Virus record (IMG/VR): IMGVR_UViG_2939127364_000001
Source of the DNA: a virus
Taxonomy: Duplodnaviria; Heunggongvirae; Uroviricota; Caudoviricetes
Reading direction: 5' to 3' (one strand)
DNA length: 64,000 nt
Made by a program: the position numbers and the translations under genes. Position 1 is the stretch's first letter. Each line of letters starts with the position of its first letter. The notes under the pieces were generated by a model, which saw nothing but the letters and a program-made list of their open reading frames with translations, did not search any database and was not told where the DNA came from. Below, in pieces: positions 2,458 through 46,777 of this stretch.

Positions 2458-3207
2458 TTAATTAGATAGGGGATCAATAAACCGCCGTGCTTCTTCCAGT
2501 TCTTCTGGAAAGTGGGCGGAAATAAGGCGCTCTGGAACGATTTCCATTAGCCAGATAGCGGAGAAAATTGCGCGTATGCGCTTGCTGCGAGGGATGGTGC
2601 GCAAACGCTCCAGAATCCACTCAAAATAGCTTTCCTGAATCGGGTTGAACTGCATGTCTCCCATATGCTTAAAGCTAACGAGAGAGTCATCCAGACGGGT
2701 TGTTGCGCGTCTGGCTAATTTCTCTTCGAATATCTCAATCAGCTCTGGCTGCCATAAATGCTGTGGGCGCGGCAGCTTGTCCCACAGCCGTCGTGCAGCT
2801 GCGGAAAGAACGGTGGAGATAAAGTAGTCGTATGAGCAGCAATAGCGATCCGCAAACTGGCGTGCTTTCCATAGCGACGTTTTGTTGGCAGTCGACAACT
2901 CCTGATAAGGCAGACGTTTTAACCCGGTGGTGAACGGAGCTGTTTCAAAGTGTTCGCGACCGTGCGTCAGCATGATATTTGAGTACTGACGTTTGTATGC
3001 CTCCGTAAAAAGACAGGTGGCCATGAGAGGATGCATGTCGCGGTAATCAAACCACTTCGTCTCGAAGAGTTCAGCCTCGTCTTTACAGCGCGACAAACCA
3101 ATGTTTTCAGCGACCCACTTGTCCATAACAGCGGTATTCCACTCTGTCATGAAGTCGTACTGGTCGTTGTCGATGGTATCGAAAAAGATTTGGCTCATGT
3201 GGCTCAC
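2458..3207 (-). CDS. Hypothetical protein (replication-module associated)
   Basis: 249-aa ORF; track start is GTG at 3207, an ATG at 3198 is an alternative. No recognisable motif. Confidence 0.5.
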   Translation of the reverse strand: MSHMSQIFFDTIDNDQYDFMTEWNTAVMDKWVAENIGLSRCKDEAELFETKWFDYRDMHPLMATCLFTEAYKRQYSNIMLTHGREHFETAPFTTGLKRLPYQELSTANKTSLWKARQFADRYCCSYDYFISTVLSAAARRLWDKLPRPQHLWQPELIEIFEEKLARRATTRLDDSLVSFKHMGDMQFNPIQESYFEWILERLRTIPRSKRIRAIFSAIWLMEIVPERLISAHFPEELEEARRFIDPLSN

Positions 3208-3308: not shown

Positions 3309-3370
3309 AAAAGACCTGCTTCCGTATATATTTAATAAGTTACTTATTATTTATATATACAGAAACAGGC
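3309..3370. repeat. Palindromic AT-rich element, copy 1 (50 bp identical to 35954..36003)
   Basis: cctgcttccgtatatatttaataagttacttattatttatatatacagaa at 3315..3364 is identical to 35954..36003; the AT-rich core is itself near-palindromic. Confidence 0.6.
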
Positions 3371-35950: not shown

Positions 35951-36013
35951 AAGCCTGCTTCCGTATATATTTAATAAGTTACTTATTATTTATATATACA
36001 GAAGCAGGTCTTT
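35951..36013. repeat. Palindromic AT-rich element, copy 2
   Basis: 35954..36003 identical to 3315..3364; flanked by a perfect 8-bp inverted repeat cctgcttc / gaagcagg. Confidence 0.6.
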
Positions 36014-36032: not shown

Positions 36033-36299
36033 TTACATCACCAGTAACTTCGCTTTGGCTCGACCTAAAGTGGTTAACCCAAGAGTTCGGCGGTGATAGC
36101 GATTGTCACTGCGTTGGCGCGTATGCCCTTTCTCCACCAGCCCCTTTTTTATCAGAGCGCGAATTGAGAACTGGATACTTTGCTTGGTTGTCTTGTACGG
36201 CAAAACTTCAAGCAATTCGTCCAGATCAAGTAAATGACCTCGCTCATAACCGAGATTGAGCGTTTTGATAATGTCCTTTTGTTTATCGGTTAACGTCAT
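36033..36299 (-). CDS. Small winged-helix-like DNA-binding protein (hypothetical)
   Basis: 88 aa, basic C-terminus; 10 nt downstream of the GNAT-like gene. Confidence 0.4.
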   Translation of the reverse strand: MTLTDKQKDIIKTLNLGYERGHLLDLDELLEVLPYKTTKQSIQFSIRALIKKGLVEKGHTRQRSDNRYHRRTLGLTTLGRAKAKLLVM

Positions 36300-42706: not shown

Positions 42707-43126
42707 ATGAAAGCAAAAAACTTAATGATTCTAATGCTAACCACGTCACTAATTGGGTGTTCGTCTTCGTCTATATCTATTTCAAAGGCAAAGGATGCAC
42801 CTCAAAGCAGAATATTTAAATATCAAACACCACATGAGTCTAGTCTAACAATAGTTCGAGACAAAGGGCTGGTTGGTTCTGCATGTAACGCTTCCATTTT
42901 CATCAATGGAGAAACGGCTGCAAAGCTAGAACCTGGTGAAAAAGCAACTTTCTACCTTAACGAAGGAGAGTGGATCGTTGGGACATCAATTGAAAGTTCA
43001 GGTCTTTGCGCATTTAACCCCTCCAGGATGGAACGAGAAATAAAGCTAAAGCAGGGCGACTCGAAAACATATCGGGTTTTCACTACCTGGGATGGTACAA
43101 TGGACATATTGCCAACCACTTTATAA
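42707..43126 (+). CDS. Lipoprotein (superinfection-exclusion candidate)
   Basis: 139 aa; signal peptide with lipobox LTTSLIGCSSS. Confidence 0.6.
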   Translation: MKAKNLMILMLTTSLIGCSSSSISISKAKDAPQSRIFKYQTPHESSLTIVRDKGLVGSACNASIFINGETAAKLEPGEKATFYLNEGEWIVGTSIESSGLCAFNPSRMEREIKLKQGDSKTYRVFTTWDGTMDILPTTL

Positions 43127-43130
43127 TGAT

Positions 43131-43652
43131 ATGACGACGAAAGACATCACCTACGGCATACCGGCTGAAGTCTGGCCGCGAGACTACGAACATGCAGAGC
43201 GCACCTTGCTCTTCTGGCGGAGTGCAAAATTTCCTGTAAGAGTCACTCTCGAAGACGGCCAAGTGTTTTGCATGTATGTCTACGGGCTATTGAGCGCAAG
43301 AAATAAGCTGAACCTCACACCAGATCCGCTTAGCAACACAAATCGTATAAGGCTCCCTCTTGAGCGCATTAGCACAATTGAGTCGGGCATAGAAGAGGTT
43401 GACACTTCATTCACAGGTCGACTAACGCTAAACAATGAACAGATGGTTAATCAGCCATCACGTCGTGACTTTTTTAAGATATGTCGTCAGGCTTACCAAA
43501 ACGGCAAATCTATAAGGGTCTACATGGCAGACGGTCGCGAAATTGAGGGAACGTCAGATGGCGTTGACGCCTGTCTAGTCACACTTAAGTTGGAAGACGG
43601 TAGAAAAATACTTATTTTCTTCGATTGGGTTGAACGAATCCTTCCGTTTTAA
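43131..43652 (+). CDS. Hypothetical protein
   Basis: Track ORF 43092..43652; start set at ATG 43131, just after the lipoprotein stop. Confidence 0.4.
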   Translation: MTTKDITYGIPAEVWPRDYEHAERTLLFWRSAKFPVRVTLEDGQVFCMYVYGLLSARNKLNLTPDPLSNTNRIRLPLERISTIESGIEEVDTSFTGRLTLNNEQMVNQPSRRDFFKICRQAYQNGKSIRVYMADGREIEGTSDGVDACLVTLKLEDGRKILIFFDWVERILPF

Positions 43653-43665
43653 TTTCTATAAGGGT

Positions 43666-43696
43666 AATAACCGGCTAAGTCCGGTTATTATTTTAC
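43666..43696 (+). terminator. Rho-independent terminator
   Basis: aataaccgg-ctaagt-ccggttatt followed by attttac. Confidence 0.55.
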
Positions 43697-43949
43697 ATGC
43701 CATTCGTTTAACACTCATTCAATTCTCCCCCGTATAAATATATAAGGTCAAAAGCCGGAATTTATTATTTATTTAGGGAACACCTTCGACGATCTCGCTT
43801 TTATTTCTAAGACTTTCATCCCTGCAAAAAAACTTAAAAAAACACTTGCAATCTTTTTTCGCGTATCGATAATTGAACGCATCAGGAACGAGTGCAAAAC
43901 ACTTTCTTTCTTGAGTTAAATTTTAATATTTATACTAAGGAATAAAATC

Positions 43950-44600
43950 ATGGCTAACATTATCATTTCTAAAAAATCCATCATTGAAGCTGCTGCCATT
44001 GTATCCGACGAGCTGCGCGAAAAAGCAGATCTGGCAACTCAAACATATAACGAACATTATAAAAATGGTACGCACACAAAAGCAGACAAAGCAAACATGC
44101 AAGCTGCGACCACTAAACTTGCTTACTTCATCAACAACGTTGTGAACGCAGTAGAAGACGAAAAATTATGCTCTGTTTTCTACTATGCGATCAAAGCAAG
44201 CAAACAAGCGCCAGAAGTATTTTTCCGTGATGCAATGACTAATAGTTATTCACTGGAAAAACTGGTCTATCTGGTCAAATCAATTAAAGCTGGAAAGTGT
44301 GTTTATTCCGTCGCTGATATGTCCGGATCTCGTGTATTCGCATTAATCGATATGATTAACGACGAGATCGACACGTTCACCAATGGCGCTGTTTTCGATT
44401 TAATGAATGAAGCGAAAAAAGCGTGCGAAATTAAATTGGACGCTGGCTATACTCAAGCCAACCAGTTGATCAATCTTTGCGAACGTCTTGGACTTGTTGA
44501 AAAAGTCAAAGGAGCTGGGAGCGCGAAAGCTGGTACTCAGCAATATCGCTTCATTAAAAATGATTTCTATAACTATCTGGCTGATGCTTTCAAAGCGTAA
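43950..44600 (+). CDS. Hypothetical protein (insulated single-gene unit)
   Basis: 216 aa; long AT-rich upstream region; RBS AAGGAA; terminator immediately downstream. Confidence 0.55.
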   Translation: MANIIISKKSIIEAAAIVSDELREKADLATQTYNEHYKNGTHTKADKANMQAATTKLAYFINNVVNAVEDEKLCSVFYYAIKASKQAPEVFFRDAMTNSYSLEKLVYLVKSIKAGKCVYSVADMSGSRVFALIDMINDEIDTFTNGAVFDLMNEAKKACEIKLDAGYTQANQLINLCERLGLVEKVKGAGSAKAGTQQYRFIKNDFYNYLADAFKA

Positions 44601-44613
44601 TTAATGGAATCTT

Positions 44614-44634
44614 GCGCCCACTATGGGCGCTTTT
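44614..44634 (+). terminator. Terminator hairpin GCGCCCACTATGGGCGC, copy 1
   Basis: gcgccca-cta-tgggcgc followed by tttt. Confidence 0.6.
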
Positions 44635-44647
44635 AAGGAGCTTAATC

Positions 44648-44878
44648 ATGTTTATTCTTATCGCTGGCGTTAACGTGCGCAATGAATATTTTGTTAATCG
44701 CATCGCTGGGATCGCTGGTTACGCTGGGCGCGCAGTCGAGCTTATAAATGAAACAACGCGCAAAATTGACTTATTGAGCGACCAGGAGCGAAAAAAAGCA
44801 GACGTGAACGACGCTGATATTTTTTTAATGTTAAAAGCGTTTGTAGAAATGGGATTTAAAATCAGTTTACACAAATAA
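44648..44878 (+). CDS. Small hypothetical protein (76 aa) flanked by duplicated terminator
   Basis: ATG at 44648 preceded by AAGGAG; the track start at 44612 lies inside the terminator hairpin. Confidence 0.45.
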   Translation: MFILIAGVNVRNEYFVNRIAGIAGYAGRAVELINETTRKIDLLSDQERKKADVNDADIFLMLKAFVEMGFKISLHK

Positions 44879-44884
44879 AATCGA

Positions 44885-44907
44885 GCGCCCACTATGGGCG
44901 CTTTTTT
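44885..44907 (+). terminator. Terminator hairpin GCGCCCACTATGGGCGC, copy 2
   Basis: Identical 17-bp hairpin followed by tttttt. Confidence 0.6.
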
Positions 44908-44931
44908 CGTTTCCAATACTTCCACCATAAC

Positions 44932-44954
44932 GCGCCAATGATGGCGCTTTTTTT
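44932..44954 (+). terminator. Third tandem terminator
   Basis: gcgcca-atga-tggcgc followed by ttttttt. Confidence 0.55.
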
Positions 44955-45330
44955 ATTGTCTTTGACTCACACCAACAACATAAAAATAAGCGCCAAAATA
45001 ACGCCATAGACGTGCTTTTATATCCTTACCAGTACATACCCATTACTTAGCGCATTAACGCGCTTAAATCGCGTTATATTGCGTTATGGTGTATGGTTAA
45101 TCATTGGCTTTTATTCTTGCTATGTGATCCGCGTTTAATTGTCGGCGCGGATCGACATTTTGTTTTGTTCCGTATCCGCTCGCGTATTATGTGCGCGTGA
45201 TTTTTCACATAATCACACCACTTAATCACATATGTGATTACGCTACGAAAGAAATCTGGATGTCTCAGGCGACGAAAGTCATCATAATTTTCCCCGCTCA
45301 CCTGTCCGACAACCGCTGGTTGGATTCCAC

Positions 45331-45491
45331 CAGCTTCCCGATGTTTTTTCTACATAAAGGCGAATGCAGCCGTTTCCCGAAAAAATCCTGGCCGTTTCCC
45401 GTCGGCTCATGAATACGTTCCTTGCCGTTTCTGAAAATTTCCCTGCGGCAGCTGGTGGCTATAGAGAAAGGGCCGTTTCTGGCCCTCTTCT
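45331..45491. repeat. Iteron-like cluster 1 (GCCGTTTC(C/T) repeats)
   Basis: 4-5 direct copies (cagccgtttcccg, ggccgtttcccg, tgccgtttctg, ggccgtttctgg), first two 22 bp apart; contains GCTGGTGG. Confidence 0.5.
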
Positions 45492-45494
45492 CAG

Positions 45495-45977
45495 TTACAC
45501 GCCATCAAGGATGTGGATGCGGTTGCTTGCGTATACATTCAGCATAAAGTTAGCGCAAAACAGTTTCCATGTATCAACGCCAGCGGTATACGTAATGTTT
45601 TTGCATTTAATTGCATTGTTGGCGATCCGCATCCCCTGCGATACTGCTTCATCGTCGGAAAATTTGAACGACGATTGAGTTTTAATCCAGACAGAAATCT
45701 GCGTAGCGAACTCAATCAGCTTGGACTGGCAGAATCGCCCGGAGCGCACCGGAAAGACGAACGTTCCGAATCCAGAATTTACCACATACGCTTTCTCAAA
45801 TACCCGCGAGTAACGACGATTGCAAATGATGTCGCGTGCAATAATGCATTTTTCTTGTGCTGACAGTTCTACCGTCTCATTGTCGCGCCATGCACCAAGT
45901 ACTCGTTTTTCAATGTCAGAGAACGTTACAGCGATATTGCCATGTGCGGGTGCGTTTACAGTAGCGATAAAATTCAT
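45495..45977 (-). CDS. Hypothetical early protein
   Basis: 160 aa; motif A 20 nt upstream of the ATG. Confidence 0.5.
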   Translation of the reverse strand: MNFIATVNAPAHGNIAVTFSDIEKRVLGAWRDNETVELSAQEKCIIARDIICNRRYSRVFEKAYVVNSGFGTFVFPVRSGRFCQSKLIEFATQISVWIKTQSSFKFSDDEAVSQGMRIANNAIKCKNITYTAGVDTWKLFCANFMLNVYASNRIHILDGV

Positions 45978-45996
45978 GATTAATTCCTTATCGTAA

Positions 45997-46013
45997 ATAA
46001 CAAATTGTTTTCT
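45997..46013. promoter_or_regulatory. Motif A upstream of 45495..45977
   Basis: ataacaaattgttttct. Confidence 0.4.
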
Positions 46014-46186
46014 TGTTGGCGTTAATTATCGTTGTACGAATAAGGCGTCAAAGTGGAAAGTTGCGGTAGCCGGACGGGAACAGGTGGGTTTGTCGGTTGC
46101 CTGGAGGTAAGAGGTTGGTGTTTTTAGCCTGCGGGAAACAGGATGGTCATTTAAGGCCACCAGCGTTAACTGGTGGCGTTTATCTC

Positions 46187-46777
46187 TCAGCGAGCAGATG
46201 AATAATATCCTTGAATTAGCTTTTCATCCACATACGGATACAGGAAGCGACGCGGGTTAGTTTGTCTGTGATTAAAAAAGTCTCTGTCATCGAAATATTG
46301 GGCACAATGATCATGGAATCCATGAATTGCATTAACAGCTAGTTCGCGGATGTCTTCATCTGTCTTGTCTGGTTTTGAATTGTACACATATATAGTAGGA
46401 TCAAGATCATACTCATTAATTGAGACTTCGACAAGTGCGTCTGGCTCTTCGCCAAACTGCTCAAGCCAAAAAAATCTTGTCATTTTCTCGTTGTGTAAAG
46501 ATGCCACTCCATAAAAATCCATTGGGAAACGAGTTTTAAGATCGCCATTCAGAATCTCTTCATCTGGCTCTTTTTCTACAATGTAAACATCCTTAGTTTT
46601 GATATACTCCACCATAGGATTAACCATTTTTAATTTTGCGTTCCAAAAATCTTCTTCTTTTTTGCGCATTTCTTCTTCTGCTTGCTGAAACTCTGCTTCT
46701 GCGGATTTCATTTCTTTCATAGTCTGTCCATATACTTCGTACAGTTCATTGGTTTTTTTCTCTAAATCAATGCTCAT
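46187..46777 (-). CDS. Hypothetical early protein
   Basis: 196 aa, acidic, coiled-coil N-terminus; half-site TTGTTTTC upstream. Confidence 0.5.
   Translation of the reverse strand: MSIDLEKKTNELYEVYGQTMKEMKSAEAEFQQAEEEMRKKEEDFWNAKLKMVNPMVEYIKTKDVYIVEKEPDEEILNGDLKTRFPMDFYGVASLHNEKMTRFFWLEQFGEEPDALVEVSINEYDLDPTIYVYNSKPDKTDEDIRELAVNAIHGFHDHCAQYFDDRDFFNHRQTNPRRFLYPYVDEKLIQGYYSSAR

Follow-up and report, generated by a model that had tools for sequence, protein, structure and literature searches.

A probable two-gene transcription unit with a small hairpin-bounded accessory-gene slot in an SSU5-type phage-plasmid

We analysed positions 43,950 to 44,954 of a 64,000-nucleotide (nt) stretch of DNA from the Caudoviricetes virus record IMGVR_UViG_2939127364_000001 (hereafter, the window), which matches the SSU5/pHCM2/pMT1 type of phage-plasmids. 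The phage records nearest to it are those of Escherichia phage PhiR41_1 (95.9% identity), Cyrano (93.8%), which E. coli LF82 carries as its phage-plasmid and which has the same slot arrangement as the window, and SSU5 (82.6% over part of the sequence). The region carries two genes on the plus strand, encoding proteins of 216 and 76 amino acids (aa), and the exact 17-mer GCGCCCACTATGGGCGC, which is found at 44614-44630 and again at 44885-44901 around the 76-aa gene, with no further copy in the 64 kb. Both copies of this hairpin, as well as a third terminator at 44932, had been pointed out in the original prediction, made from the sequence, and were located here as described. We consider it probable, though by no means assured, that the region is a self-contained two-gene transcription unit combined with a small plastic slot for accessory genes, whose seams are the hairpin and a Shine-Dalgarno block, and that the unit is silent in lysogens. 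The features of the unit, in order along the window, are as follows.

43950-44600, plus strand: 216-aa core gene (phrog_1513), predicted to encode a helical N-terminal part and a winged-helix-like C-terminal part
44614-44630, plus strand: hairpin copy 1, loop CUA, intercistronic, with a crippled U-tract (folding; terminator score 8.1)
44631-44647, plus strand: T-run and Shine-Dalgarno block TTTTAAGGAGCTTAATC, which precedes each cassette gene in E. coli-type relatives
44648-44878, plus strand: 76-aa accessory gene B76 (phrog_1585; PHROG match and homologues), from its ATG to the end of its stop codon
44885-44901, plus strand: hairpin copy 2 with TTTTTTCGTTTC behind it, which closes the slot as a strong terminator (scan, fold and score)
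44932-44954, plus strand: third hairpin, terminator T3, consisting of GCGCCAATGATGGCGC and T7 (scan, fold and score)
44989-45005, minus strand: terminator-like hairpin for the convergent leftward genes (terminator scan), overlapping inverted repeat I2

The repeat around the 17-mer extends to 32 nt with 88% identity (44603-44634 and 44874-44905); the chance expectation for GCGCCCACTATGGGCGC is 0.08 matches with at most three mismatches, and none of 100 shuffles reached five. Each copy folds into a 7-bp stem with a 3-nt loop and a folding energy of -12.0 kcal/mol (17-mer alone), against -9.3 kcal/mol for T3, and the 89-nt tandem terminator pair has a fold z of -4.4. All three hairpins thus have the stem-loop of an intrinsic terminator, whereas an uninterrupted U-tract follows copy 2 and T3 but not copy 1, the native tails of the two copies being UUUUAAGGAG and UUUUUUCGUUUC, respectively. 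Copy 1 is followed by TTTT, and the 76-aa gene's ribosome-binding site, AAGGAG, begins directly after these four residues, so that only 17 nt, ribosome-binding site included, separate the hairpin from the ATG. It was not called by the consensus terminator scan, and on a d'Aubenton-Carafa-type terminator score it reached 8.1, compared with 36.4 for copy 2 (T6) and 38.1 for T3 (T7). For these reasons copy 1 is not an insulating terminator; it is an intercistronic hairpin in a two-gene unit, and two real tandem terminators follow. The "three tandem terminators" that had been proposed therefore hold for copy 2 and T3, but not for copy 1. The terminator scan also marks copy 2 as terminator-like on the minus strand because of an A-rich stretch 5' of it. 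No plus-strand promoter-like site was found in 43874-45000 by the promoter scan, and no Rfam family was matched in 43000-46500.

To see how the slot varies, the DNA from the stop codon of the 216-aa gene to the third terminator was parsed in 86 related loci. Behind the conserved 216-aa gene, the slot holds zero, one or two small genes belonging to the families A67, B76 and B75, the last being a paralogue of B76, in the following arrangements.

28 of 86 loci: hairpin, A67, hairpin (SSU5 and Klebsiella types)
19 of 86 loci: hairpin, B76, hairpin (the window's type; one with a frameshifted B76)
17 of 86 loci: hairpin, A67, B76, hairpin (PhiR41_1 type, with only a T-run between the two genes)
10 of 86 loci: empty slot, with a single hairpin directly before T3
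5 of 86 loci: hairpin, B75, hairpin (Y. pestis pMT1 type)
3 of 86 loci: hairpin, A67, B75, hairpin
2 of 86 loci: hairpin, B75, hairpin, B76, hairpin, that is, three hairpins
2 of 86 loci: degenerate first hairpin (L056 and L083)

In L083, the most distant locus, the 64-aa slot gene resembles A67. The 76-aa gene, A67 and B75 are thus optional, whereas the 216-aa gene is present in every relative examined, including the pMT1 and pHCM2-type plasmids. The distance from the last hairpin copy to T3 is 43-47 nt in all loci. In the relatives, the 76 internal hairpin copies carry a T-run of one to four residues that merges into AAGGAG or AAGGAT and have a median terminator score of -3.9, while terminal or single copies are followed by T5-7 and CGTTT; T5-7 is seen behind the terminal copy in 72 of 74 relatives (median score 36.4), and the single copies of empty slots have T6 (median score 45). 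In the diverged loci L112, L118, L157 and L166, T3 itself has been swapped for an exact copy of GCGCCCACTATGGGCGC, and in L146 (1350-1900, reverse complement) a 44-nt unit of hairpin and spacer is present in three tandem copies.

Several lines of evidence indicate that the slot contents have been exchanged. Contents differ among loci whose 216-aa genes are at least 97% identical in DNA; one such cluster holds twelve loci with A67-B76, one with A67-B75 and one with B75-hairpin-B76. Conversely, slots with B76 alone are found on backbones whose identity ranges from 100% to 78.6%, so the same content spans about 20% divergence. Between the window and three Klebsiella-type loci, the synonymous divergence (dS) of B76 is 0.11-0.22 as against 0.69-0.94 for the adjacent 216-aa gene, that is, 4-6 times lower, implying that the cassette was shared far more recently than its neighbour. 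When L012 and L009 are compared, they are near-identical through A67 up to TTTTTTTAAGGAGCTTAATCATG, diverge over B76/B75, and are identical again from the hairpin; the breakpoints of the B75/B76 replacement are exact and lie at the shared Shine-Dalgarno block on the left and the hairpin on the right. In two of three comparisons with the window, the right limit of high identity is likewise at copy 2/T3. This pattern of boundaries supports the conclusion that a small gene together with its hairpin behaves as a cassette. It had been suggested that the 76-aa gene and its terminator were inserted as a cassette. The gene is indeed optional and hairpin-bounded, with exact B75/B76 breakpoints and a low dS of B76, but in the lineage of the window an insertion of B76 fits no better than a deletion of A67 from the common A67-B76 form, between two TTT(A)AAGGAGCTT blocks. 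As for the machinery, Cyrano encodes a T4-like recombination set (UvsW, UvsY, a gp32-like single-stranded DNA-binding protein, a RecA/UvsX-like protein, SbcCD-like proteins and RuvC), which makes short-homology exchange a plausible mechanism.

A simpler account would be that the identical hairpins are just good terminators under selection, and that the slot varies through homologous recombination in the flanking genes without any involvement of the hairpin. The GC stem of T3 is also invariant across lineages, so stem conservation alone is not special, and this element family is highly recombinogenic anyway. However, the empty slots retain exactly one hairpin, flanked on the left precisely as copy 1 is and on the right precisely as the last copy is; arrays with three hairpins and 44-nt hairpin units in tandem exist; the B75/B76 breakpoints fall at the Shine-Dalgarno block and the hairpin to the base; and the first copy is a poor terminator in every filled locus. 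We therefore regard this account as unlikely, albeit the least unlikely of the alternatives that we weighed.

The unit is preceded by a gene at 43092-43652, whose product is a FljA-like protein of full length, a "repressor of phase-1 flagellin" (PF03614, E = 1.8e-68), and by a 5' intergenic region of 297 nt with a GC content of 32%. An alignment of this upstream region with 14 diverged relatives revealed the following features.

43661-43694, plus strand: terminator-like hairpin ending the FljA-like gene (fold -15.3 kcal/mol, z -3.7; kept in 13 of the 14 diverged relatives)
43735-43747, plus strand: block TAAATATATAAGG, a candidate regulator-binding site (invariant in the 14 diverged loci)
43767-43818, plus strand: blocks ATTTATTTAGGGAACACCTTCGA (from 43767) and TTTATTTCTAAGACTTT (from 43800), kept in relatives down to L083 and L089
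43846-43873, plus strand: sigma70-like promoter predicted by the promoter scan, TTGCAA, 16-nt spacer and GATAAT, with an A-tract 5' of it

Within the putative promoter, the A-tract, the -35 CTTG and the -10 TCGATAATT are kept in the relatives. In the distant homologue L089 the same upstream blocks recur, with three copies of the 43735 block, and in the window ATTTATTTAGGGAACACCTTCGA and TTTATTTCTAAGACTTT have no repeat elsewhere. With the transcription start placed from the predicted promoter, the 5' untranslated region of the 216-aa gene would be about 70 nt long. The "long AT-rich leader" that had been noted is thus AT-rich and 297 nt long, but appears to consist mostly of promoter and regulatory DNA.

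We also considered whether the upstream blocks represent a genome-wide promoter motif and rejected this idea, as the window shows no enrichment of TCTAAGACTTT or ATATATAAGG. Only a longer motif, TAAATATATA[A/C]GG, recurs, at two palindromic elements. These are two copies of an AT-rich element of about 55 nt, CCTGCTTCTGTATATATAAATAATAAGTAACTTATTAAATATATACGGAAGCAGG, both on the minus strand, at ~35955-36012, about 120 nt 5' of the open reading frame (ORF) of the small terminase, and at ~3315-3367, about 110 nt 5' of ORF 3207..2458. The half-element TAAATATATACGG matches the 43735-43747 block at 12 of 13 bases, and there are only three such sites in the 64 kb. The Cyrano record begins inside this element, which could be a late promoter, an operator or a packaging-related site. 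Directly 5' of the element that faces the terminase genes lies a minus-strand ORF of about 87 aa (36036-36299; MTLTDKQKDIIKTLNLGYERGHLL...GLVEKGHTRQRSDNRYHRR) with a winged-helix-like look, a candidate late regulator.

For expression in lysogens we relied on the LF82/Cyrano RNA-seq data of Misson et al. (PMC9928086), who listed 13 morons in Cyrano, neither CYRAN_113 (the 216-aa gene) nor CYRAN_112 (the 76-aa gene) being among them. In lysogeny broth (LB), the values in their S1 table are 5.93 for CYRAN_113 and 4.99, the zero-read floor, for CYRAN_112, compared with a Cyrano median of 9.8 and a moron cut-off of 49.1 (PMC9928086). Both genes are also among the lowest in the other conditions, with log2(fpkm+5) values (fpkm, fragments per kilobase per million) of about 5.6 and 4.6 in macrophages at 6 h (PMC9928086). 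On the other hand, CYRAN_114, the counterpart of the FljA-like gene, is expressed in lysogens and more highly in macrophages, and exceeds CYRAN_113 about 50-fold in several conditions; in condition B1, for instance, expression drops from ~150 to ~2 fpkm across the upstream hairpin gap (PMC9928086). This difference fits an effective insulation of the unit on its upstream side.

These data bear on the earlier suggestion that such insulated genes are lysogen-expressed morons, that is, that the 76-aa gene, or both genes, would be autonomous cassettes expressed in lysogens to the benefit of the host, for instance through stress tolerance or phage exclusion. In favour of this, the small genes are optional at a fixed position and flanked by terminators, copy 2 and its T6 serving the 76-aa gene as a terminator of its own; their GC content of 39.8% lies below the window average of 46.5%; the unit is insulated on both sides; and there is a modest rise in macrophages at 6 h. 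However, the 76-aa gene lacks its own promoter, the 216-aa gene belongs to the core and is not optional, no match to known defence families was found with PADLOC, and in Cyrano the two genes stand at or near the zero-read floor in LB, below the element median and outside the list of 13. The suggestion is therefore not upheld, and we consider the moron interpretation quite improbable. The original prediction had named two observations that would tell against it together, a lack of transcription in lysogens and conservation of the arrangement within a longer operon; the former is seen in Cyrano, but the latter is not.

Our preferred reading, that of a two-gene unit with a plastic slot, would work as follows. 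The sigma70-like promoter at 43846-43873, with regulator-type blocks upstream of it, would drive the 216-aa core gene. Copy 1 would have kept the terminator stem while its U-tract was lost to the ribosome-binding site of the next gene, and would most likely act as a leaky terminator and/or a stabiliser of the 3' end, so that the 216-aa protein would be made in larger amounts than the product of the promoterless gene downstream. The full copy 2 and the second terminator behind it would halt transcription before the convergent leftward genes. The unit, off in the lysogens of the relative Cyrano, would presumably be used in lytic development or upon a specific induction. The boundaries of the modules would be the repeated hairpin and the T-run with the AAGGAGCTT block, and recombination or replication slippage between these motifs may add, swap, stack and delete cassettes composed of a ribosome-binding site, a small gene and a hairpin; a slot emptied in this way would be left with one hairpin.

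A number of points weigh against this reading. The expression data are gene-level counts from a relative at 93.8% identity under five conditions, none of them lytic induction; the only usable ratio between the two genes comes from Cyrano in macrophages at 6 h, ~43 versus ~19 fpkm at low counts; and leaky termination at copy 1 is a prediction only. In a sliding-window comparison, the B76 transfer shows no sharp breakpoint on its left side, a point that also favours terminators conserved by selection with exchange in the flanking genes, although the high conservation of the 216-aa gene in its 3' half accounts for the diffuse boundary. Further, the A67-B76 arrays have no hairpin between their genes, so a hairpin is not needed at every junction, and ordinary homologous recombination in the flanking genes could be the source of part of the pattern.

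The hairpins show a further kind of variation. Their stems are essentially invariant while the 3-nt loop is variable: it reads CTA in most copies and the exact reverse complement, TAG, in 17 (eight first, eight last and one single copy), and the rarer loops also occur both ways round (TTA/TAA, CAA/TTG and TCA/TGA). The loops of T3 (44932-44947 and the same site in L001-L087) behave alike, with 16 cases of ATGA versus 15 of TCAT, and 27 of TTGT versus eight of ACAA. Both states coexist within clusters that are less than 3% diverged, so there is no orientation-specific selection on the loop sequence. An assembly artefact is unlikely, as the 7-nt arms are far shorter than assembly k-mers. Judged from the sequences, these flips are the signature of inversion by template switching. 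They resemble the cases described by Monttinen and Loytynoja (2022, PMC8794818), in which loops are exactly reverse-complemented with intact stems, but those concern rRNA hairpins in a deep phylogeny, whereas here the inversions are polymorphic in clusters less than 3% diverged and affect three adjacent terminators of a phage-plasmid.

Alternatively, the palindrome GCGCCCA-N3-TGGGCGC could be a protein site, either bound by a dimeric regulator, which may be the 216-aa protein, as an operator or roadblock, or serving as the recombinase target of a miniature integron-like platform. Its 14 stem bases are near-invariant down to 53% identity of the neighbouring protein, without compensatory changes, and the central three bases vary and invert freely, as would be the case for a symmetric dimer site. 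In 2.9 million viral contigs, a scan that yielded 104 contig stretches placed the 17-mer at this locus and, beyond it, only in a handful of unrelated, mostly GC-rich contexts. However, the T-run and the terminator-like context are equally conserved, T3 likewise has an invariant stem and an inverting loop, there is no adjacent recombinase gene, and a perfect stem-loop of 17 nt is unlike attC sites, so we give this explanation very little credence. An equally slight chance, in our estimation, attaches to the idea that the palindrome is a site of hairpin-targeted capture and exchange, acting as DNA or cruciform with an element protein or the T4-like/SbcCD-like machinery and hence forming an integrase-independent platform, on which the 216-aa protein would have A67, B76 and B75 as exchangeable partners or modulators.

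Neither the 216-aa nor the 76-aa protein matches a credible family in Pfam, NCBIfam or PADLOC; A67, compared with NCBIfam and PADLOC, has no family in these two. A search of PDB sequences was also null (the lowest E was 0.55 with the 216-aa protein and 0.17 with the B76 profile), and Foldseek against the BFVD viral structures gave no match at E <= 0.001. The family of the 216-aa protein is tiny and confined to SSU5-type elements, with only 24 relatives in a profile search of 1.84 billion representative proteins. Its AlphaFold2 model, with a predicted local distance difference test (pLDDT) score of 82, has a helical N-terminal part and a C-terminal helix-turn-helix with a beta-hairpin, and the product, with modest confidence, probably binds DNA and has a winged-helix C-terminus; for the 76-aa protein the model is unusable (pLDDT 50). 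B76 belongs to phrog_1585 (E = 7.3e-38), with 81 homologues, all in this element family. The ratio of nonsynonymous to synonymous divergence (dN/dS) lies at 0.04-0.14 in the 216-aa gene, at about 0.2-0.36 in B76 and at 0.07 in A67, and together with the PHROG matches of the 216-aa gene and B76, the two that were scanned, these ratios make all three look like real genes. B76 and A67 often occur as frameshifted or truncated versions, of 49-56 aa and 51 aa, respectively, as in L021, L007 and proteins P0166-P0181, which suggests that the cassette genes are dispensable and may be decaying in some lineages. Two annotations in the slot of SSU5 are of note. SSU5_119, the 67-aa A67 gene (L002 7057-7260), is annotated as "MIT family metal ion transporter (CorA)", a name that looks spurious for a short, apparently coiled-coil protein lacking an NCBIfam or PADLOC match, and SSU5_118 (40 aa, minus strand; L002 7257-7379), which runs across both terminators, is probably not a real gene.

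The neighbouring genes encode a helicase, a lipoprotein, the FljA-like regulator and small products to which no function is assigned, and downstream of the unit lies a block of small leftward genes that are convergent with it. Between T3 and the convergent 160-aa gene there is a non-coding gap of 545 nt (44950-45494). It contains a perfect 16-bp palindrome, AATCACATATGTGATT (45224-45239), with a half-site, CACATAATCACA (45206), nearby, two plus-strand terminator-like hairpins (45125-45154 and 45181-45197), and repeats of the GCGTTA/GCGTTTTAGC type, which are tandemly expanded in relatives such as L008; this gap could be an operator, an origin-like region or a locus of non-coding RNA. In a wider search, 804 plasmid records in PLSDB matched the locus, from Klebsiella, Escherichia, Enterobacter, Yersinia pestis (pMT1), Salmonella (pHCM2 type) and others, while a scan of genome contigs yielded five loci only. 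A contig labelled "MAG: Bacillota bacterium" (MAG, metagenome-assembled genome; L004, JAEWTL010000044.1) has an enterobacterial phage-plasmid locus in the 85-90% identity range, and a protein labelled Finegoldia magna (P0093) derives from the same phage-plasmid locus in that range; mis-binning or contamination is likely in both cases.

Intercistronic attenuating terminators and stabilising hairpins are well known from operons such as rpsU-dnaG-rpoD, the malE-malF repetitive extragenic palindromic (REP) element and Rhodobacter puf. Copy 1 resembles them in its stable GC hairpin and weak U-tract, and unequal product levels are predicted here as well, but it differs from them in being an exact duplicate of the terminal terminator of its own operon. 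Integron cassettes are similar in that promoterless small ORFs, each with a 3' palindrome, are stacked in variable numbers behind an upstream promoter; however, their attC sites are 57-141 nt long and imperfect, with extrahelical bases, as opposed to the 17-nt perfect hairpin with a U-tract found here. An integron-like array was rejected, as no integrase, attI or Pc lies nearby and there is no attC. With the lambdoid morons (a concept of Juhala and Hendrix, summarised in PMC9928086), the slot shares an optional gene at a fixed position with its own terminator, but the cassette lacks its own promoter and is not expressed in the Cyrano lysogen. The PeSL cassettes of T4-type phages (Arbiol et al. 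2010, PMC2839356; Comeau et al. 2014, PMC4122927) are alike in that stem-loop motifs flank small genes, that the boundaries of insertions, deletions and replacements fall in the motif (empty versus filled slots, three-hairpin arrays, L012/L009), and that the element encodes T4-like recombination genes. On the other hand, the PeSL motif contains a strong sigma70-like early promoter, whereas the motif here combines a hairpin, a T-run and a Shine-Dalgarno sequence without promoter hexamers, so that the cassettes are promoterless and dependent on read-through. Moreover, PeSLs are dispersed over hyperplastic regions, while the present motif occupies one locus in one to three copies, with two in the 64 kb. 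A genome-wide repeat of REP or PeSL type was rejected, the 17-mer being confined to the locus. The locus is a local variant of the known shuffling of modules bounded by terminator motifs.

As such, it offers a compact and well-sampled case in which a terminator hairpin and a ribosome-binding block serve as the boundaries for gene gain, loss, stacking and replacement, and it shows how a terminator becomes a read-through hairpin once another gene comes to lie after it. At the three neighbouring terminators, the repeated exact flips of the loops are a clean population-level mark of template switching at small palindromes. Phage-plasmids of the SSU5/pHCM2/pMT1 type are very common in clinical Enterobacteriaceae, and in these elements annotations and screens should not treat the locus as one of lysogenic conversion. 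Its core protein of 216 aa, winged-helix-like and silent in lysogens, is a candidate regulator of the lytic phase.

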